From an uncultured Nitrososphaeraceae archaeon (lineage in GTDB: Archaea; Thermoproteota; Nitrososphaeria; Nitrososphaerales; Nitrososphaeraceae), in NCBI GenBank assembly GCA_963825865.1, contig CAWGVG010000056.1:1-34096 (forward strand): a stretch of DNA of 34,096 nucleotides, written 5' to 3'. The position numbers were made by a program, and so were the translations under genes. A model generated the notes under the pieces. That model was not told the origin of the DNA. It ran no database searches and saw nothing but the letters and a program-made list of their open reading frames with translations. Shown piece after piece: positions 5,080 to 21,635 of this stretch (position 1 is the first letter of the stretch; each line of letters opens with the position of its first letter).

Positions 5080-7422
5080 ATGGTAGCACTAGTAGTATTA
5101 TTAGGTAATAACGGTGTGCCAATAGTGCCAAAACTCAGCAAAATCGAGATAAAATGTCTAATGCTAGAGTTGGTAATAATACTAGCAACATCTATGATAA
5201 TAGCATCATGTCAAATATATGCCCAACCACTGTCATTATCTGTCGGCGCAGCGTCTGATATTCAGGTGCGCACATCCCCGCGAGCTATAGCTGTTAACCC
5301 AAATACAAATATGATATACGTGGCTAACTCTCGTTCTGATTCCGTCTCTGATAAATGGGACAAGTGGCATAGTATTGGCTAACAACGTTACAGTGGGCAA
5401 ATTTCCGCGAGCTGTAGCTGTTAATCCATATACAAATATGATATACGTGGCTAACGCTGGTTCCGATTCTGTCTCTGTGATAAATGGCATAACAAATAAG
5501 CCAGCTCAACCTGATATAAAGGTGGGCACATCTCCGTTTGCTGTAGCTGTTAACCCAAATACAAATATGATATACGTGGCTAACCTTGTTTCTGATTCTG
5601 TCTCTGTGATAAATGGCAAAACAAATAACGTATCAACAGCTCAACCTGATATTAAGGTGGGTATATCTCCATCTGCTGTAGCTGTTAACCCAAATACAAA
5701 TATGATATACGTCGCTAACTATGGTTCTGATTCCGTCTCTGTGATAAATGGGGCAACTGACAAAGTATTGGCTAACAACGTTACAGTTGGCAAATTTCCG
5801 CAAGCTGTAACTGTTAACCCAAATACAAACAAAGTATACGTGACATTTGGAGAAGGGAAGAGGATCCTTGTGATAGATGATCATAATGATATCGGAACCG
5901 TAGTATATGGCAATTATTCTGATCCAAGTGTAGGTGCTATAGCTGTTAACCCAAATACAAACAAAGTATACGTGGCTAACGCTGGTTCTGATTCTGTCTC
6001 TGTGATAAATGGCATAACAAATAACGTATCAACAGCTCAACCTGATATTAAGGTAGGCAAATCTCCATCTGCTGTAGCTGTTAATCCATATACAAACAAA
6101 GTATACGTCGCTAACTTCTATTCTGATTCTGTCTCTGTGATAAATGGCATAACAAATAAGCCAGCTCAACCTGATATTAAGGTGGGTATATCTCCGTTTG
6201 CTGTAGCTGTTAACCCAAATACAAATATGATATACGTGGCTAACGCTGGTTCTGATTCTGTCTCTGATAAATGGCAAAGCAAATAACGTATCAACAGCTC
6301 AACCTGATATTAAGGTGGACAAATCTCCGAAAGCTGTAGCTGTTAATCCATATACAAATATGATATACGTGGCTAACGCTGGTTCTGATTCTGTCTCTAT
6401 GATAGATCCGTATAATGTAAGCAAATACACTGAAGGTAGTATAGCGGCGAACACCGCAGTGGGCAAAGCTCCGCAAGCTGTAACTGTTAACCCAAATACA
6501 AATATGATATACGTGGCTAACTTCTATCCTAATTCTGTCTCTGTAATAGATGGGACAAGTGGCAAAGTATTGGCTAACAACGTTACAGTGGGCAAATTTC
6601 CGCAAGCTGTAGCTGTTAATCCATATACAAATATGATATACGTGGCTAACTCTGGTTCTGATTCTGTCTCTGTGATAGATGGATCAATTAACAATATAGT
6701 AGCAGGAGTGACCTTTAACATTCATCCTTTTAATGCAGGCCATATAACATGTAATAATGATATTTCAACAAATGTTTATGTTAGGATTAGATTTGGAACC
6801 CAATGCAAAGCCGAGGCTAATAGTGGTTTTGTATTTAGTTCTTGGTCTGAAAATCTAGGGCATAATTCAAGCAAGACTATGACAACATCACCAATTTCTG
6901 ATTCATGGACTTCCTTATTAAATGCTATAGGTCTTTTAAACGATAATTCTTCTACATTCAAAATTTCTCAATATGGAAACTTTATCGCTAACTTTAGAGA
7001 AGCTCCTTCTCCAATTCCACCGGCGTATTTGCTCGCCATATTTGGCTTTATTCTCAGTACTATCTGTACCATCCATTCTACGTTGGATCGGTGGATATAA
7101 TCAAAGAAGGAATCTATACAAATACATGCTGGATCAAATTGATTCTAGTCGTGAGAGCATCGATCGAAACACAAGAACAAAAAAGATTACAGAATTATAT
7201 ACGGAAGGAAAGATAACTGCATCACAACGCAAAATGTTAGAAGAAAAGATTTCACGGTATTATAAGGCGGTGAGTGATACGACCAGTATAGAAAATCATG
7301 ATAGCGTTCCAGCTGAAGAATATAACAAATCCGTACCTGCAAGAAAATCAGCTACAGGAACTATAATGCCACCAACAGCGAAGCAAGAGTCTAATCCTAA
7401 CACCAATTTAGAGAATAAATAG
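5080..7422 (+). CDS. YVTN/YncE-type beta-propeller repeat surface protein with C-terminal TM segment, split by 3 frameshifts
   Basis: 11 repeats of P-x-A-V-[AT]-V-N-P-[NY]-T-N-x-[IV]-Y-V-A-N-x-x-S-D-S-V-S-V-I; signal-like N-terminus; TM PPAYLLAIFGFILSTIVPSILRW after indel repair at about 5350, 6266 and 7065. Confidence 0.9.
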
Positions 7423-10549: not shown

Positions 10550-10994
10550 TCATGCAGTCTGATGCAATTCTGTGATTGCTAGCACGCTTGCAATGATAAA
10601 GCTCGTTAAAGGTCCCACTGCCGCGATTTTAAATTCCATATGAAAGTCCTTTCTTGATGGTCCTGTTGTTTCTCCTTTTTGTTCCCACTTGTATTCTTCT
10701 TCTTCTATATCTGAAACTCCACCAAAAATGAAGAGCATTATCTGGCGTACTCTAATGCCATACCTTAGTGCTAAAATGGAATGTGCTAATTCGTGTAAAA
10801 GTACAGATATAAACAATATAGCCGCACCCAGTACACCCATAATCCAATAATGTACAGTCGTTAGACACGGGATAACGATATATTTGAGGCATTAGCGTTG
10901 CTGCAAGTGTCCAAGATATTAGAAAAAAGGCAATAATTAAAGTAAAATGTAAACGGATAGGTATTCCTTTGATTTTCGCTACCTGTAGTGACAA
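10550..10994 (-). pseudogene. Site-2 protease (M50 family), N-terminal part, frameshifted and truncated
   Basis: IKGIPIRLHFT, SVLLHELAHS (HExxH), IMLFIFGGVS, EFKIAAVGP; the NxxP/LDGG and CBS regions are absent. Confidence 0.9.
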
Positions 10995-11008: not shown

Positions 11009-11574
11009 TTTCTTGTAGAAGGGTGCAGAAACCCCAAGGCAGTTACAATTCTCGTAAGAAGGCGGCTCACAGAGAGTAGTTGACGAAGCTGAGCGTTCTA
11101 TACATGATGCCTTGATGGTGATAAAAGATGTTTTAGAAAAACCACAAATAGTTGCAGGCGGCGGTGCTCCTGAAGCATATATTGCAACTCAATTGAGAGA
11201 ATGGTCAAGTAGTATAGAAGGAAGGGCGCAGCTATCAGTTCACAAATATGCAGACGCGCTTGATTCGATTCCATTAACACTCGCAGAAAATGCAGGTATG
11301 GATCCAATCGATACTATGACTGAATTAAAGATCAAAACAGAGCAAGGGTGCGAAATGGACTGGCATGGACGTCAGAAACACGGTGGTTGCTGATATGTTC
11401 AAACAGGATGTGCTAGAGCCAGTTATTGTTAAGGAACAAATCATTAAATCTGCTACAGAAACAGCTTGCATGATATTAAGAGTAGATGATGTAATTGCTT
11501 CAAGCAAGTCAAAGACGCCCCCTATGCCTCCAGGAGCTGGTGCCGGTGGAATGGGAGGAATGGGTATGGAGTAA
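11009..11574 (+). pseudogene. ths: Thermosome (group II chaperonin) subunit, C-terminal third only
   Basis: FLVEGCRNPKAVTILVR, VVDEAERSIHDAL, IVAGGGAPE, LAENAGMDPID, ILRVDDVI, GGMGGMGME tail; two +1 indels; no 5' part. Confidence 0.92.
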
Positions 11575-13175: not shown

Positions 13176-13682
13176 ATGTCAAATCACGAATGTATTAGGA
13201 AACTATGGGTCGTACCACTCTTTATTGCTCTTGCATTTCTATTTATTATTCCAAGTACTGCAATATTGCTTAGTAATAATAGCTATTTAGGTACTACTAC
13301 CAATCTTGTATATGGTCAACTAGATCAAATGAATTCCAATGTTACAAATTCACTAAACATCCAAAATATACCAGTAAAAAAAGTCCACGTGGGAGATATT
13401 GACATTGCATACAAGATGTTTGGTAAAGGTGACCCTATTTTACTTTTCAATGGCGCTTCTGATAGTATGGATGCCTGGGATCCGTCCTTTCTAACGGGTC
13501 TTTCTTCAAATCACACAGTAATCGCGTTTGATCAACGTGGAATTGCAAATACAACAGCTGGTTCCAAACCATACACTTATCAGCAACTAGCAAACGATAC
13601 AGCTGGTTTGCTTGATGCTCTAAAAATACCAAAAGCAGATGTTATGGGATATTCTTTGGGAGGTTATGGTTGTAGAAGATGA
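13176..13682 (+). pseudogene. Secreted alpha/beta hydrolase, truncated just after the nucleophile elbow
   Basis: KKVHVGDIDIAYKMFGKGDPILLFNG...VIAFDQRG...ADVMGYSLGG, then stop. Confidence 0.88.
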
Positions 13683-14009
13683 CCTAATAGCCTGATGATG
13701 ATTTGTTAGGATTTAAAAGTATAGCATAATGCTCAATATATAACGACAGTGTAAGAGTACTTGCTGAGCTTCATAGCTTCAGATATATTTATACTATAGA
13801 AGAACCTAAACTCAGAATCATCACAGTTTGAAGCATTAAGACATTTATCACATGTAGTTTAACAAAATAACTTTTCAGGAACAATCTGAACTTCCATATA
13901 GGTACAAGAATATAGTTTTTTTACATCATATTAACTTATTATGGAATGCTATTTTCATAATCTCAGAACCTGATACTTCTACTCTATTTTAATGGATGCA
14001 TTATATGTT

Positions 14010-16849
14010 CTAGCAAACTATAGTTGGTGGCGCATCAACCACTTTTCCATATTTCAAGTCTACTAATCGTGCCAGCTTTCTTGGCTGGGCTTTTGAAGTA
14101 ATGCCTGCCATTAGATGAAGCAGCACCTGCCCATCCATTTAACATCATATCAAAGTTACCTAGAATAATTAACTTTTCTTTTGACCTAGAAATAGCAACG
14201 TTCAGATCCTGTAATGTTCCAGCTGCACCTACATTCCTTTCAGGATTATTTCTAGTTAGTGAAAAAAGGACAATATCAGCTTGAGTTCCTAATGCACCTG
14301 TAGTAGTAGTTACTTTAATATCTGTATGTCCCATTCTTTGCAAATACCTTCTTATGATTTGTTTTTGAGCTGTGAATCTGGTGATAACAGCGATGGATTT
14401 ATTATGATTATTACGTGTTATGTGAATTAAATGATTACAGATCTTTGCACATGCTTTAGCTTCCATATCATTTGCCCATGATGAGGGGCCTATCGGCTGC
14501 TCATTACCATTGATATCAACCCATGTTGTAACTTCGTCAGGTTGAATAATTTCACGAATTCTATATCCGGTGATCTGTCCAAGACTAACCTCCTTGAAGC
14601 GATTTCAGGAGCAGATCTCAATCCATCATATTCAGCGAATTCATTAACTAGCCCAGACAACCGATCTGGAAGACGATGTGAAATACGTAATGTATCCCAA
14701 CGCGATCTCTTCATTACCCATTCAATTGCACTGTAATCGACTCGCACAGGACTGATAGGTCTCGATTGTTTTGGATCTCCAACTACTGTGGCAACTGTAC
14801 CACATTGTGATATTAGTTCCATGAGGTCGTTGATTTGAGAAGAATTGCTATTTGCATTAGTATCATCAGAATTGTTATTATTACTGTGCTATTCTTGTAT
14901 TGTTGTGCTATTGCATTATTGACACCAAACCAAAATGGCCACAGTAAATGTTCTAGTCTTTCAATACCGGCTTCATCGATAATCATATTGTCAAACCTCA
15001 TCAAAGAAGGTAATCTTTTGAGTGATAAGTTTGTAGATATTATAATCCTCTTCTCTTGAATCTCATCGGCAGATCTGCTGAAAGGAATTGGTATAAGGGA
15101 TCTACTCCTGTTGGATTACCTGTTCTAAGGCATAACCTCTTTGCTACTTCTGGACCTAGTATGTTACAAAGCTCCCAGCAAAACTCATTGGCAGCAGCAT
15201 TAGTATAAGCTACAAGCAGAACTCTCTTAGCAAGATCTTCAGCTATCATCTTGATAGCTAATCCACTTCCAACAGTTGTCTTGCCACAACCAGGTGGGCC
15301 TACTACGGCTGCAATATCTTTAGTGTTGCACGCCAGTTTAACACCCTAAGCTGTTCTGTATCAAGAGAGAATTATTCATTCTGATTACAGCCGAAAAATA
15401 ACTCTGTGGGTAGCATTATGTCAGCAGCTAATCGATGGAACCTATGCATTGGCTCAGAGTACTCTTCGTGTAAGATTGATTTCATCTGGAATGATTATGA
15501 TTGGAAGATCGAACAGTTGTGTTTTAGCACGTTGAGCAATTGTGTTTCAATCAAAATCTACTACCAATTTTGTGTCATCTACTTCCTTTACAAACCCTTT
15601 TTCATTTACACAGGCCAGAAGGGGAATGCTGTCACCATCACCTTCTTGTTCTTTGCCAATTATTCTGACAATTTTACGTGGTTCTAGCAGGGTAAGCGTT
15701 GTGATATCATCATTGTTATCATTATAGTTTTTTACAAGAGTAATTGAATTGTCATTAATCGAATGTACTCTGTATCCGGAATGTATGACACCGGTTCTTT
15801 CAAGTTCCCGTAATGCAGCTGCTTCTCCTAATCTATCAATTATGCTACTAATTACAAATTTGTGTTTGTGGGTTTCAGCGCGTTCATCTAAAACAAGGTA
15901 TCGCCTTTTTACTAACAAGCGTCTAATATTAGCATAATTTACAGGTAAATTTCCTTGGAGTGCTAGTTTAGAATCCTCACGATAGAACCGACAATCAAAA
16001 GAAGATTCACCATCTCTATCACATACAGGACAGAAGGCAGGTTTTTGTGCATGTGGCCTTCCTCCACATAGAATCTCATATGCAAACTTTCTATCATTTT
16101 TAACCTTGTTAATCCAGTCTTCTCCTAATGGAAAACGTGGAATGTAGGCTCCTTCATAGAATACTACTGAACCAAATAGACATTTACTCCAGTTATTCTC
16201 ATCGCCAGTATAACGATAGTTTGTCAGTAGAAAATTTGCGATTAGCTCCCATCGATCTGTTCCACTACTACTGGTGTCTTTGGTTATATCATTTGTCTTC
16301 CAATCTACAAGACCGTATCTGCCATCCTTGAATTCAAAAATAGCATCAATTCTCCCTTCTTGCACTTCTTTTACATTGGTTATGGTGATCTCCGTCACAG
16401 CTCGTTTAGGTTGCTCATATTTTTTCATTATGCGTTTTGCAAGACCAAGCAAAAGGCCATGGAAACGATCTTGTACTTCGTAGTCGAATGTTTCTAGAAC
16501 AGGAGTTTTTCCCTCCATTCTAGCCTTTTCTTTTGCATTGGCTATCCCCTTTTCTACAATACCTTCTGAGTCTTTATCTATAGATTTTGCAATATGTTCA
16601 AAATCTTATTCTGTCTTACCTTGCTGCCAATTATCCAAAATTGTTGTTGGCGAAGCTAGGCTTATGATATCATGAACTGTATTGGCAATTAGATAATCTC
16701 GCTCTCCTCCAGACAACTCCAAACGGATAACTCATTTTGAATAAATAAGGACACACACATGTGGTGGCAATTTCTTTTGATTGCACTAGATGAGTCTTTG
16801 TGCGTGCCATAGTTTTGTAAAGGTCTCTTACTACAAGGTTGTTACTCAT
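14010..16849 (-). CDS. Dna2-like Fe-S PD-(D/E)XK nuclease fused to SF1 (Upf1/Dna2-type) helicase; multiple frameshifts
   Basis: N-terminal TTCVCPY...TVHDII; EGRIDAIFEFKDGRYGLVDWKT; FCPVCDRDGESSFDC; Walker A GPPGCGKTT (about 15275-15300); VAYTNAAA; IIDEAG; VGDPKQ; QADIVLFSLTR; LNVAISRSKEKLIILGN. Confidence 0.88.
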
Positions 16850-16889
16850 TTATAGAATTGCACCCATATCCACAATAAATAACCACCGT

Positions 16890-17121
16890 TTATAACCAAC
16901 CACACTCACCAATGGTTAAATCGCAATTTTCGCATTGATATCGGGCTTTATCTGAATCATAGATCTTGATCATGGTATCAAAACAATCAGGACAGTCTAC
17001 TACGAGTTCTTCTTCCGGCTCTGGTTGTAGATCAGTCAGTGTCTTGATCAGCTATTTCCTCCAGATTATTATCTGCTCTTTCTAAGATTACTGCCTTCTG
17101 AGATAATATCGTTTTTGTCAA
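16890..17121 (-). CDS. Small zinc-ribbon protein (one frameshift)
   Basis: PEPEEELVVDCPDCFDTMIKIYDSDKARYQCENCDLTIG (CxxC-x16-CxxC); not in the ORF track; ends 40 bp before the nuclease-helicase ATG. Confidence 0.65.
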
Positions 17122-17161
17122 TCCGATGAGTCTTCTTACATACACAATAGCAAACAATATA

Positions 17162-17187
17162 AGTAATATCATATGACTAATATTACT
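17162..17187. promoter_or_regulatory. Inverted repeat, candidate operator in divergent promoter
   Basis: AGTAATAT-N10-ATATTACT, overlapping a TCATATGA palindrome. Confidence 0.45.
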
Positions 17188-18030
17188 AAAGTGACTATAG
17201 CGAGCACTGATACTATGCTTAATACAGTTAACTCGCTACAAATCCTCCGTGTTCACGTGGCACCAGTTGGGTTCGAAGTAGACAGGATAGTCTTACCTGC
17301 TATCAGAATGAAGGCTGACAGAGTATGGCTTATTGTGCATAATGAACCTCATGCTGACAAGGGAGGTAGATTCGTGAAATTAATTCAAGCAAAGTTAAAG
17401 GATGCCAGAATTGATTGTTTACAAGCGCAAGCTGATAGAATTGATCTCTTTGATATATTAAGAGCTCTAAGAACAATATTTTTGCGAGAGAAAGGAAACT
17501 CTATTTTAGTAAATGTATCAGTTGGTAGTAAGATTCAAGCCATTGCTTCTATGATGGCATGCATGATGTTCAAAGACATTGCCATGATAAAGCCGTATTA
17601 TGTTGTACCTCAAAGATATAACAGCACGTTAGTAAAGGAGGAGGAAAAGCAAGAAACTGAAGGTGTAAAAGATATCATTGGCCTTCCAGAATACAAAATT
17701 GAAATTCCTACTGATAGATTGATAAGATGTTTGGACATAATAAATAAAAAAACTGATGGCAAAATTACTAAACGCGAGCTCAAAGATCTAGCAATAGAAC
17801 ATAATCTTATCTATGTAGAAAGTGATAATAAAAAAACAATTGGTGGCAAGAAGAGAGCAAGAGGAGAATATAGCGATCAAGCGGCCTATATGACATTGAA
17901 TAAAAATCTGATAGAGCCATTACTTGATTGGCGATTTATCACTGAAAGTAAGATTGGATCTCATCATGTAGTTTCATTAACGGATGATGGAAAACACGCT
18001 TTAAAATTCCTTAATGCAGATATTCTTTGA
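17173..18030 (+). CDS. DUF6293/HFX_2341-like regulator: CARF-like Rossmann domain plus C-terminal winged helix (Csa3-like architecture); true start may be ATG 17215
   Basis: RVHVAPVGFEVDRIV...ADRVWLI...ILVNVSVGSKIQAIASMMACM...PYYVVP, then ITKREL...IEPLLDWRFITESKIG...VSLTDDGK; intact 285-aa ORF. Confidence 0.85.
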   Translation: MTNITKVTIASTDTMLNTVNSLQILRVHVAPVGFEVDRIVLPAIRMKADRVWLIVHNEPHADKGGRFVKLIQAKLKDARIDCLQAQADRIDLFDILRALRTIFLREKGNSILVNVSVGSKIQAIASMMACMMFKDIAMIKPYYVVPQRYNSTLVKEEEKQETEGVKDIIGLPEYKIEIPTDRLIRCLDIINKKTDGKITKRELKDLAIEHNLIYVESDNKKTIGGKKRARGEYSDQAAYMTLNKNLIEPLLDWRFITESKIGSHHVVSLTDDGKHALKFLNADIL

Positions 18031-18166: not shown

Positions 18167-18331
18167 CTATACACTTACCAAAATTGCTCCATTCATTGCA
18201 CCTATAGAAGTACCGGCAACGATATCGAATAACAGGCTATCTTCTCCTTTACCTTTTTTATTATCCCAATTATCTTCTTCTTTGAACTTTTCACATAATA
18301 CCTTAAGTACACCTACCTCATAAGCGCCAAG
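18167..18331 (-). pseudogene. Patatin-like phospholipase fragment
   Basis: LGAYEVGVLKVL...FDIVAGTSIGAMNGAILVS (GxSxG nucleophile); not in the ORF track. Confidence 0.85.
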
Positions 18332-18901
18332 TTCCGGTTGCATCTAGTTTAGTTACCAGGCTAAATGTCTTGAACTGGTTCTGCGTAGCTCGCAGGCAGT
18401 GGCTGCGTCGTCCTAGATGTCGCATTTTCAAGACCAAGGGGCCACGTGTCAGTAAAGTTTTCCCATTGGGACGTGTCGGTATCATTGGCAAGTGAAAATG
18501 GATTTCAGAAAACTATTTGAAATTCAGTTCTGTAGTTTAGATGGCAGTAGTAGTAATAATCTACTACTGCGATAATCCTAAAGAAGATACAAGCATTATC
18601 TCTAGCCAAAGATTGTTATTCAATGAAGGTAAAACCAAGTTTGATATGCGAATTTGGCTGTCCATACAACTCATAGGCAGCCATTAGAAGTTTTAGCTTT
18701 CTAGTCCACATAAGTAAGATAAGAAGTACTTCAATGTGCTATCATTGATTGAAATTCTGTGACTTTATATTTACGTCCAGTACAAACCCATAAAGACAAG
18801 ATCATTTCATTAAAAATGAATACAAAAACTATGGACGTATATGATCCTACAAGCGTAGAAGTTGAACGCCACTTTGAAACAAGCACGGTGAAATTGAACA
18901 T

Positions 18902-19317: not shown

Positions 19318-19758
19318 CTATTTCACTACCATTACAGGACAATGTGAATAAGTTACTACTTTATAAGCAACACTTCCAAGTAGTATTTTCTTGAAACCTG
19401 ATCTTCCTCTTGTTCCAACAACAATCAGATCAACGTCTTTATCTTCAGCATAATCTACTATACCTCCTGCTGTATTTGTAGAAGCAATAATTTCTGTTTT
19501 TATCGGAATATTCTTTTCATTTGCTTTGAGTTTAACTTTATCCAAATATTTCTGAGCTTCTTTGTTCATGTCTATTGTATTGTAAGCTGCTGTTGTCATT
19601 TCTCCAGTTGATCCAAATAAATCAGCGTCAGCTGGGTGTATAACATGCAAAGCATAAAGAAGTTCTGCATTATATTGTTCAGATATAGATACAGCATAAT
19701 CTGCTGCATCCATTGACGCATCAGAGCCATCTATTGCAATTAATATTTTGGAGAACAT
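19318..19758 (-). CDS. uspA: Universal stress protein (UspA family)
   Basis: MFSKILIAIDGS...VDLIVVGTRGRSGFKKILLGSVAYKVVTYSHCPVMVVK. Confidence 0.95.
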   Translation of the reverse strand: MFSKILIAIDGSDASMDAADYAVSISEQYNAELLYALHVIHPADADLFGSTGEMTTAAYNTIDMNKEAQKYLDKVKLKANEKNIPIKTEIIASTNTAGGIVDYAEDKDVDLIVVGTRGRSGFKKILLGSVAYKVVTYSHCPVMVVK

Positions 19759-19943
19759 TGTCTTTTGACTAGCGTAGTAGTTGACATATATGTATGTACT
19801 TTTAGTTAAAAAAGAAGATCTATTAAAATTCATGTCTTAGAGTCATCATAGGTTCAGATCCTATCTCTTGTTGACATGCCATGAATATACTATATATATT
19901 ATTAAAGAACTATTACTTCAATACCTTTGATCATACAGTGTAT

Positions 19944-20613: not shown

Positions 20614-21635
20614 TATACTAATTAACATAAATTCGTATACTCATCTCAGCAGATACTTGACAATATCTAAATTGAAACGTCTAGTCCTGTAATATTCTCT
20701 TATTGCCTTCAGATCAAGAAATTTGGGATAGTATTTTGATACCAACAGATCATATTTTCCCTGTTTCCAGCATTCCTCGACAGCATTGAATTCTGGTGAG
20801 CTCTTTGGAAAATATTCGACTCTAATGACATCCTTGTTTTCTTCTAGATATGTTCTAACCTTTCTTGAACGATAATGTTGTGTTGCCCGTTATCCATGAG
20901 CAAAATTATATTACCAATCTTCTTCTGTAGCTTCTTTAGATAATCCAGAAATACATTTTCATTAAACGCATGATATTGCCTAAAGAACTGCTTACAGTCA
21001 ATGGAAAGAGTGCCAAACACGTATGTTTTCTGATGAGAACCTGTTATAGTTACTACTGGGCGTGTTTTTAGGTACCCATATCTTTCTCTTCTAACATTAG
21101 TACATCATGTACAAATATGGATTCATCTAGAACTGCGACTGTGAATCCTTCTGGGACGCTAGCAAGGATCTCTTCAACTCTTTTTTGAACTGTTCCTTCT
21201 CTTCCTTTGATGCCGTATTGACAAATCTCCTTTGTGGTACTTTAGGTTTGAAACCCCACTTGTGTAGTAGCCTATAGACATGAACTTCATGGTATCTTAC
21301 ATCTGCTTTCTTGTGAATTATGTTCATAATTTCCTTAGCCTTCCAACCTGATGGGTTTTCTGATAGCTCTATTCTTATCTTTGACAGCTCCTTCTCTGGT
21401 ACCTCTGGTGGCCTGCCATTTCTTGGCCTGTCCTTTAATCCATTTAAACCATCTATATCATATCTTTTTAGCCATTTGTAGGCCCAAGCCCTAGATCTAT
21501 GGAGTTCATTCTTAGCTACATCAGTAACATTTTTGCCCTCAGCTCTAACACGTCTAACCAACAGAATTCTTTCTCTTACATCCGCATCTGATTCATGGCG
21601 ATAAGCATCATTTAGCTTATCGCTAAATGCTTCAT
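20614..21635 (-). mobile_element. IS630-family element (HTH ORF plus DDE ORF), left end lost, DDE part frameshifted
   Basis: HTH ORF 21127-21561 (AWAYKWLKRY...GLKDRPRNGRPP); A6G slippery site at 21180-21186 leading to VAVLDESIF; LLMDN; PEFNAVEECWKQGK; stop at 20641; TA-bounded end near 20614. Confidence 0.9.

Follow-up and report, generated by a model that had tools for sequence, protein, structure and literature searches.

A CARF-type DUF6293 regulator gene divergent from a zinc-ribbon gene and a split Dna2-like nuclease-helicase pair in Nitrososphaeraceae

According to the available parts of two reports, Csa3a of Sulfolobus binds and activates the promoters of nurA-herA, dpo2 and DNA-damage-response genes (PMC5587795, PMC7515695). 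HFX_2341 of Haloferax mediterranei is described, in the available part of its report, as a DUF6293 transcriptional repressor without CRISPR linkage and as a global regulator, and no nuclease-helicase neighbour is mentioned there (PMC11434293). A regulator gene comparable to both was found at 14010-18030 of a 34,096-nt stretch of DNA (the window), which is the whole of contig C56 in the assembly of an uncultured archaeon of the Nitrososphaeraceae, ammonia oxidisers of soil (genome G000; 4.98 Mb, 62 contigs, 81.8% completeness). At this locus one plus-strand regulator gene faces three minus-strand genes, which encode a zinc-ribbon protein, a nuclease and a helicase (Table 1). The regulator has the same plan of a CARF domain and a winged helix-turn-helix (wHTH) as Csa3a of Sulfolobus islandicus, but sequence likeness to Csa3 was marginal (Pfam Csa3_N, 0.003, below the cut-off). 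Moreover, Csa3a belongs to a CRISPR-cas locus and has adaptation genes among its targets, whereas the scanned open reading frames (ORFs) of the window included no cas gene, in agreement with an earlier note on this DNA, and a nuclease-helicase pair, the candidate target, is physically adjacent. With HFX_2341 the regulator shares the domains HFX_2341_N and DUF6293_C, but it is not an equivalog, since its orthologue from genome G006 scored 25.8 bits with NCBIfam NF051475 against a cut-off of 500.

The divergent enzyme genes also have described counterparts. Eukaryotic Dna2 (mouse; 5EAN, 5EAW, 5EAX) possesses a like PD-(D/E)xK site, a four-cysteine cluster and a helicase of superfamily 1B (SF1B), but here the corresponding parts are carried by two polypeptides that are accessory and patchily distributed rather than universal. 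What archaeal Dna2 homologues do is called unclear in the available part of one report (PMC3914693). UvrD-Cas4, AddAB/AdnAB and NurA-HerA likewise process DNA ends with a helicase joined to a nuclease, which is either RecB/Cas4-type or NurA; they differ in having SF1A UvrD motors or HerA hexamers and other architectures. In other genomes, NurA-HerA or UvrD-Cas4 takes the place of the split Dna2 next to the regulator, and the available parts of two reports mention none of these enzymes together with a DUF6293 regulator (PMC5704561, PMC6563490). No published description of the linkage was found in the papers searched, but the CARF census of 2020 (Makarova et al., NAR) and its supplements may already list it.

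The arrangement is real and well conserved, and it is a variant of the Csa3a/HFX_2341 theme with a two-subunit Dna2-like enzyme that had not been annotated. As the motor proved to consist of two genes, the module comprises four genes and not the three originally proposed. With little better than even confidence, we read the locus as one in which the regulator controls the adjacent operon, that is, as a CARF-gated, autoregulated module for DNA-end processing; given such control, a role primarily in repair and one primarily in defence appear about equally probable. To our knowledge, almost all that is known of CARF domains concerns the reception of CRISPR type III signals, and the sensing of damage or invasion and the switching on of end-resection enzymes are largely unknown in archaea outside the Sulfolobales. 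A CARF-wHTH factor is here seen repeatedly beside nuclease-helicase machines of five kinds, and its lineage is one in which no Cas10 was found. The locus narrows the promoter to some 40 bp and offers candidates for both operator and sensor as well as a defined operon as target, and the question of what a CRISPR-free CARF protein senses and controls becomes directly testable. Were the link merely positional, the finding would reduce to a further DUF6293 member beside a Cas4-like nuclease.

The regulator and its conserved neighbours

The regulator ORF of 285 codons was uninterrupted and stood head-to-head with the other genes, as first described. Its product matched the Pfam families HFX_2341_N (2.7e-33; 115.4 bits against a cut-off of 30), DUF6293_C (6.6e-17; 62.2 against 27) and CARF_Card1 (6.7e-6; 26.6 against 24.6), all over cut-off; no meaningful sequence match was obtained in the PDB. 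The predicted structure (predicted local distance difference test, pLDDT, 81.4; below 50 for residues 1-21) consisted of a beta-alpha Rossmann-like domain and a winged helix. All Foldseek matches listed were CARF proteins (Can2, Csm6, Sis0811, Card1, Cam1 and Csa3, the last with entries 6wxq, 2wte and 6w11) or CARF-like, e.g. VC1899, and the top ones had E-values of 1.3e-8 to 1e-6 and a probability of 1.00. The PADLOC model for CARF3 (PDLC01847) matched the G006 orthologue, which is 83% identical to the window protein, over its full length at 9.7e-65. Thus, the assumption that the N-terminal domain has a CARF fold was borne out.

The segment N114-V-S-V-G-S-K120, which follows strand E110-114 of the model, was invariant in 16 of 16 aligned regulators, and the QAIASMMxCMMF stretch after K120 was invariant or nearly so in the same sequences. 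The former fits the CARF signature [DN]x[ST]xxx[RK] after strand 4, which is attributed to Makarova et al. 2014. The annotated start at 17173 was disfavoured because the first 24 codons overlap the promoter element, are unconserved as protein and fall in the part of low pLDDT; judging from the alignment and the model, the downstream ATG given in Table 1 is probably the true start. The protein is probably a dimer.

Among 81 family genomes searched, none yielded a Cas10 (Cmr2, TIGR02577, 0/81; Csm1, TIGR02578, 0/81 over cut-off). For this reason a type III CRISPR accessory module was rejected as an explanation, and a type III cyclic oligoadenylate signal appears unlikely.

A search of the same 81 genomes with PF19810 gave matches in 46 at E<=1e-3 and in 31 over cut-off (G092 included). 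Twenty-four strong regulator loci were inspected with context up to 15 kb, and in 20 the divergent neighbour was of nuclease/helicase type. The Dna2-like clade of the window occupied this place in nine (the window, L018, L020, L057, L060, L062, L064, L067 and L071), a second clade with PDDEXK_1 and AAA_11/12 in two (L025, L063) and as remnants in two more (L059, L076), a third clade in five (L068, L069, L070, L073 and L074, the helicase ORF not being seen in L070) and a NurA-type gene in two (L058, L072, the latter ending at a contig edge). The four loci having none were L061 (decayed), L065, L066 (a 1.3-kb contig) and L075 (a distant paralogue). By Pfam, L058 contained a full operon of zinc ribbon, NurA, HerA, Mre11 and Rad50. 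One more regulator locus with a nuclease/helicase-type neighbour, outside the 24-locus count, was present in G092.

A scan of GTDB contigs yielded 80 loci, 26 Nitrososphaeraceae-type and 54 Nitrosopumilaceae-type. The 26 largely overlap the family genomes already counted and are not independent of them. A nuclease/helicase-type neighbour was present in 19 of the 26, and three of the other seven had less than 250 bp upstream, so that the repeated adjacency that the earlier note had put forward for checking was found in both sets. Queries with nuclease, helicase and NurA matched none of the 54 Nitrosopumilaceae-type loci, and 47 of these displayed a fixed synteny of metallophosphoesterase, hemerythrin and regulator genes. 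In Nitrosotenuis (L138, L148), the regulator was followed by a 1025-residue fusion of UvrD and PDDEXK_1.

The largest nuclease fragment of the window, used as query against 41 genomes, matched 11 including its own, i.e. ten of 24 other genomes of the family and 0 of 16 from other families of the order. In seven of the ten (G016, G017, G010, G002, G008, G019 and G022), the pair was present without a regulator in its contig sequence, and housekeeping genes surrounded the five such loci whose flanks were scanned. One regulator-less pair, L019:4240-7604 in G010, was preceded by genes for a DNA methylase, an ORC-like ATPase with AAA_22 and wHTH, and a 348-residue protein; another, L016:3582-6275 in G016, was preceded by a 117-residue ORF and a divergent gene for a 414-residue wHTH protein.

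The mini-gene ahead of the nuclease had been described earlier as CxxC-x16-CxxC, 40 bp upstream, and this was upheld by a CPDC-x16-CENC ORF, open stop-to-stop over 16893-17051, whose stop lies 40 nt ahead of ATG 16849. A mini-ORF was detected between regulator and nuclease in 14 of the 24 loci (tblastn), and an 83-residue form preceded NurA in L058. It was kept in L061, L085, L089, L100 and L105, where the nuclease is gone; the zinc ribbon accompanies the regulator whichever nuclease is its partner. Its core read VDCPDCxDxMxxxYDWDKxxYxCENCGLxI, with C20, D22, C23, C40, E41, N42 and C43 invariant in 14 sequences, and the N-terminal 30-45 residues were poorly conserved except for an RRxxLxQ-like start. 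Likeness to the TFIIB zinc ribbon in Pfam was weak (3.5e-5 and 7e-4, below cut-off). From the sequence and the N-termini of orthologues, translation probably starts near 17145.

The nuclease and helicase genes

The nuclease and SF1 helicase motifs reported from the window were all recovered. In the minus strand, ORF 15547-16518 contained EGRIDAIFEF..GLVDWKT, the first of the nuclease cysteines lay in ATTCVCPYLF (ORF 16670-16849) and later ones in CPVC-x9-C, and a QxxxY-like motif was also present. The helicase motifs were GPPGCGKT (Walker A), DEAG and GDPKQ, and its C-terminal piece matched Pfam AAA_12 at 9.4e-22. What had been taken for a single 2.8-kb reading unit, as in a fusion protein, turned out to be two genes. 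Nuclease and helicase were separate ORFs in 17 of 17 loci that have both (8 + 9 loci), with 468-495 and 436-459 residues, respectively, in the intact relatives, and the helicase ATG overlapped the nuclease stop in L018, L021 and L024. An overlap of stop and start is the usual sign of translational coupling, and on this ground the two genes are judged a translationally coupled pair in intact relatives. A programmed frameshift from nuclease into helicase was rejected because the orthologues carry their own start codon overlapping the stop.

A word-index search for fused relatives of 841-2400 residues found none, which is weak evidence. When 1.84 billion representatives were searched exhaustively with a profile, 198 proteins reached E<=1e-3 and 43 of them E<=1e-30; the best 150 matches included a single fused form (P0188; 901 residues; PDDEXK_1 with AAA_11/AAA_12). 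The 120 relatives listed were nameless or called "hypothetical protein", save two with the generic name "PD-(D/E)XK nuclease superfamily".

Pfam gave no match at E<=0.1 for the window nuclease fragments and none at 1e-3 for nine intact orthologues, and the nuclease profile found no PDB sequence at E<=0.1; the identity of the nuclease therefore rests on motifs and fold. In an alignment of 15 nucleases from three clades, C32, E163-G-R-x-D167, K183, Q199 and C274 were invariant and C271 nearly so. To examine the fold, the G006 orthologue, which is about 80% identical to the 323-residue nuclease fragment of the window, was modelled with AlphaFold (pLDDT 83.9; predicted template modelling score 0.87). 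Foldseek placed mouse Dna2 (5ean) first with E 1.3e-9, followed by AdnAB at 3e-4 and Cas4 at about 2e-3. VIA-align superposed residues 7-468 of the model on 37-586 of mouse Dna2 with Z 19.7 and a root-mean-square deviation of 4.5 over 394 residues; the next-best structural matches were AdnAB, AddAB and Cas4 (Z 10-13; Cas4 13.1, AdnAB 12.3). The Dna2-likeness claimed at the outset is thus correct at the level of the fold.

For the last 160 nuclease residues, structural matches were also obtained to the barrel and stalk at the N-terminus of IGHMBP2, Sen1 and Upf1 (Z 7.6-8.9). AAA_11 and AAA_12 were detected in all intact helicase orthologues, and the best helicase matches in the PDB by phmmer were Upf1/NAM7 (1.5e-10) and Dna2 (4.5e-10). 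These likenesses would therefore place the split between the barrel/stalk and RecA domain 1A, and the two proteins together, judged from sequence comparison and model, appear to be a Dna2 divided at the barrel/helicase boundary.

Shared promoter, proposed control and biological role

In the window, a TATA-like box (AATATAAG) at 17156-17163 was followed by direct TKACTA repeats at 17174, 17183 and 17192, i.e. with a spacing of 9 bp. In 24 distinct Nitrososphaeraceae loci, T[TG]ACTA occurred 41 times, on the forward strand only and 30-90 bp upstream of the RVHVAPVGFE codon, against an expectation of about 1.1 (background, 0.78 per kb). Two or three copies, spaced by 9 bp, were usual, and a TATA-like box lay 8-12 bp ahead of them. 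The triple repeat was found once in the 4.98-Mb genome against 0.035 expected, and TKACTA repeat pairs numbered 16 genome-wide against 11.6 expected, with no signal beyond the promoter of the regulator itself. Nitrosopumilaceae regulators (L107-L160) had a TATA box and then an inverted repeat, TAGTATG-N9-CATACTA, about 20-60 bp upstream of the start; its ACTA core is that of the direct repeats, and it occupies the same position. Thus, regulator gene and element stay together, as is expected of an operator for autoregulation. If the zinc-ribbon start near 17145 is correct, the repeats likewise precede the divergent operon, at a distance of 30-50 bp, and one site could both repress the regulator and control the operon.

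The proposed mechanism builds on folds, motifs, gene order, linkage and a cis element that were observed and are conserved. The regulator would bind the three direct repeats just downstream of its own TATA box and thereby repress its own transcription, and, with the same repeats directly upstream of the zinc-ribbon-nuclease-helicase operon, one operator would set both transcription units. A small ligand in the conserved CARF pocket would switch the regulator. The split Dna2 would consist of an iron-sulfur PD-(D/E)xK nuclease with stalk and barrel plus an SF1B motor subunit, and by homology the enzyme is predicted to thread and degrade 5' single-stranded DNA ends. Such degradation would correspond to end resection in the repair of double-strand breaks, and linear DNA of an invader would be destroyed by it just as well. 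The zinc-ribbon protein probably assists as a co-factor, either in regulation or in the recognition of DNA ends. A broader version, which we put forward only tentatively and consider rather unlikely, holds that, in ammonia oxidisers lacking type III CRISPR, the CARF domain senses a second messenger and through a shared operator switches on exchangeable resection machines (split Dna2, NurA-HerA-Mre11-Rad50, UvrD-Cas4), as a nucleotide-signalled response to DNA breaks or invaders that is independent of CRISPR signalling or predates it, with the zinc ribbon as a dedicated co-factor.

Several observations weigh against control of the operon by the regulator or against a core function of the module. 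By the counts given above, the nuclease is patchy within the family and was not detected in the genomes sampled from other families of the order, and most other nuclease genomes hold a pair without a regulator in the contig. About 50 Nitrosotalea-type loci hold the regulator in another, fixed synteny without a nuclease neighbour, so that it can act elsewhere. Inverted repeats would be expected for a symmetric dimer, but the proposed operator has direct ones. The module is multi-copy in some genomes and often decayed (L059, L076; C19, C28 and C59 of G000), an integrase adjoins it twice (L082, L084), and the regulator-linked NurA-HerA-Mre11-Rad50 of G003 is an extra set and not the housekeeping one, since G003 holds a second, housekeeping-type Mre11 elsewhere and G000 has HerA-Mre11-Rad50 on C9. 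The patchiness, the multiple and decayed copies, the integrases and the extra NurA-HerA copy fit an accessory or defence role better than one in core repair.

An adjacency without regulatory meaning would explain part of this: DUF6293 proteins would be global regulators that share a recombination-prone spot with nuclease-helicase genes. According to the available part of its report, the genes repressed by HFX_2341 are numerous and unrelated, and it is not linked to them in the genome (PMC11434293). The Nitrosotalea-type loci fit this explanation, as do L082 and L084, two loci of one genus that have a common flank of PNPOx, TENA and polyprenyl synthase genes (L082:8468-11624, L084:575-3415). 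Beside this flank they carry nuclease-helicase genes of different clades in opposite orientation, each with a tyrosine integrase on the far side (L082:420-1619, L084:8213-9235), and this arrangement might reflect a hot spot of integration or a small integrative element. However, five unrelated kinds of machine adjoin the regulator (three Dna2-like clades, NurA-HerA-Mre11-Rad50 and UvrD-Cas4), the partners in Nitrososphaeraceae always stand in the same divergent, promoter-sharing geometry, and chance or a hot spot would also bring genes of other types. A purely positional link is accordingly considered improbable.

If the regulator does control its neighbour, the next issue is what the enzyme is for. 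All five partner types are homologous to end-resection machines, which favours a response to DNA breaks. The alternative is anti-virus or anti-plasmid defence, in which CARF would sense infection and turn on an exchangeable nuclease-helicase effector that shreds invading DNA. CARF is a typical sensor domain of immunity, the structural neighbours of the regulator are CRISPR-ancillary proteins and PADLOC lists the family as CARF3. The patchy, multi-copy and frequently decayed occurrence of the module and the second copy of NurA-HerA-Mre11-Rad50 point the same way, as does the exchange of effectors. In a maximum-likelihood tree of 27 regulators, clades followed the host genus; the partner clades in genus g14 (support 99/97) were a, a and c, and those in genus g16 (95/93) were b, a b-remnant, none, one unplaced locus with a zinc ribbon only, c and c. 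With a regulator tree ordered by genus and different partners within a genus, the nuclease-helicase cassette has therefore been exchanged under a stable pair of regulator and zinc ribbon. Mobile or modifying genes also occur nearby, namely the integrases by L082 and L084, a DNA methylase and a GIY-YIG gene adjoining the regulator in L058, and a methylase by the G010 pair, and UvrD-Cas4 fusions have been proposed as defence components in the available part of one report (PMC5704561).

On the other side, no described defence system was matched. In PADLOC-DB 2.0 (2023 library), the helicase matched MkoA/MkoC at 5.9e-32 but over the helicase core only (profile positions 939-1082 of 1112), the nuclease matched Cas4 weakly at 1e-3 and the zinc ribbon had no match. 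The 83 ORFs flanking 14 loci were mostly housekeeping (PNPOx, polyprenyl synthase, Nuo, CysRS, TFB, TBP, UDG, Fen1) and included two integrases and no known defence gene. Furthermore, the regulator is inherited with the host genus and Cas10 was not found in the genomes searched. Defence as the function of the module is regarded as doubtful. The earlier description had offered "defence or DNA-damage"; a known defence system was not found, and the DNA-damage side is favoured at least equally by partners that are end-resection homologues. The two roles are not exclusive, as end-resection enzymes also degrade linear foreign DNA.

Frame breaks, coordinates and flanking genes

Compared with the G016 orthologue (89% amino-acid identity), the window pair contained eight frameshifting indels, two in the nuclease (+1 near 16712 and +1 near 15457) and six in the helicase. 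The nuclease was further interrupted by TGA at 15547-15549, a plain substitution, and by TAA at 16606-16608, which requires two substitutions or a compensated pair of indels. Another +1 near 17043, in the N-terminal part of the zinc-ribbon ORF, puts the probable GTG start out of frame, which is why the window ORF lacks a start codon.

It is probable, in our judgement, that these breaks are an artefact of assembly, by which the window's own copy was damaged, and that the genes of the organism are intact. This judgement is based on four observations. The sole rpoB of the same assembly (C44:24950-28183) was spread over six or more reading frames. ORFs of at least 150 codons covered 48% of the genome and 32% of the window, against 60% in 222 kb of the relatives' loci. 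Substitutions relative to G016 numbered 44/22/116 at codon positions 1/2/3 of the nuclease and 34/34/96 in the helicase, and this third-position bias points to purifying selection. Finally, in Logan contigs from four soil or rhizosphere runs of four studies, representing related strains 92-99% alike, the frame-restoring state was seen in three runs each at 15093, 15327, 15457 and 16715 and in all four at 17043. A point to the contrary is that these contigs come from related strains, not from this genome, and are no proof of an intact copy in the window.

The rival view that the pair are truly decayed pseudogenes beside a still-intact regulator, i.e. a dead module, draws on the ten disruptions within 2.85 kb, two of them in-frame stops, on several indels that lie outside homopolymers, and on the long-ORF cover of the window, the lowest among the larger contigs. 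Real remnants of other modules also exist in G000, namely regulator fragments at C28:90997-91257 and C59:33713-33838 (88% and 52% identical to the G006 regulator, respectively) and a second-clade nuclease fragment at C19:12441-12627. The essential rpoB gene, however, is itself broken in this incomplete assembly of many contigs, selection still appears in the substitutions, and the undisrupted state occurs at five sites in related strains from four studies. We hold decay of the window pair to be unlikely. Indel errors seem to pervade the assembly, a matter of consequence for every finding from G000.

A chimeric junction near 17130, named in the earlier note as a possible flaw, was ruled out, since contigs of four runs from four studies (records 6, 15, 24 and 30) span the head-to-head junction.

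Table 1. Features of the locus at 14010-18030 (positions are those of the window)
Feature	Position	Strand	Remarks
SF1B (Dna2/Upf1-like) helicase gene	14010..15379	-	Start ATG 15377-15379, stop 14007-14009; at least 5 frames in the window
Nuclease gene, PD-(D/E)xK Cas4/RecB-type with 4-Cys cluster, then stalk and beta-barrel	15376..16849	-	ATG at 16849
Zinc-ribbon mini-gene	16890..17145	-	Core 16893-17051; probable GTG start 17143-17145
Shared divergent promoter, putative operator	17156..17197	+	TATA-like box and three direct TKACTA repeats
DUF6293 / HFX_2341-like regulator gene, CARF and winged helix	17173..18030	+	Intact ORF; start probably ATG 17245 (M25)

Outside the locus, many broken genes were observed along the contig, with fragments at 5375-7100, 10550-10840, 11112-11393, 13176-13682 and 18167-18343; the kinds represented were a lactonase beta-propeller (two pieces), an M50 peptidase, a 93-residue thermosome piece (Cpn60_TCP1), a truncated alpha/beta hydrolase and a 58-residue patatin. 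The minus strand at 21127-21561 encoded helix-turn-helix domains of transposase type (HTH_33, HTH_32, HTH_29), probably the N-terminal part of the transposase of an insertion sequence element.

Two further observations concern the neighbours of the regulator. In genus g16, a TFB (TFIIB) paralogue or TFB fragment was located directly downstream of the regulator (L069:5165-6660, L070:4416-5912, L025:1098-1424). A gene for a universal stress protein (Usp) was found within a few kb of the DUF6293 regulator, possibly by chance, in the window (19318-19833, minus strand) and at L065:1814-2275, L095:10420-10944 and L101:11700-12167.

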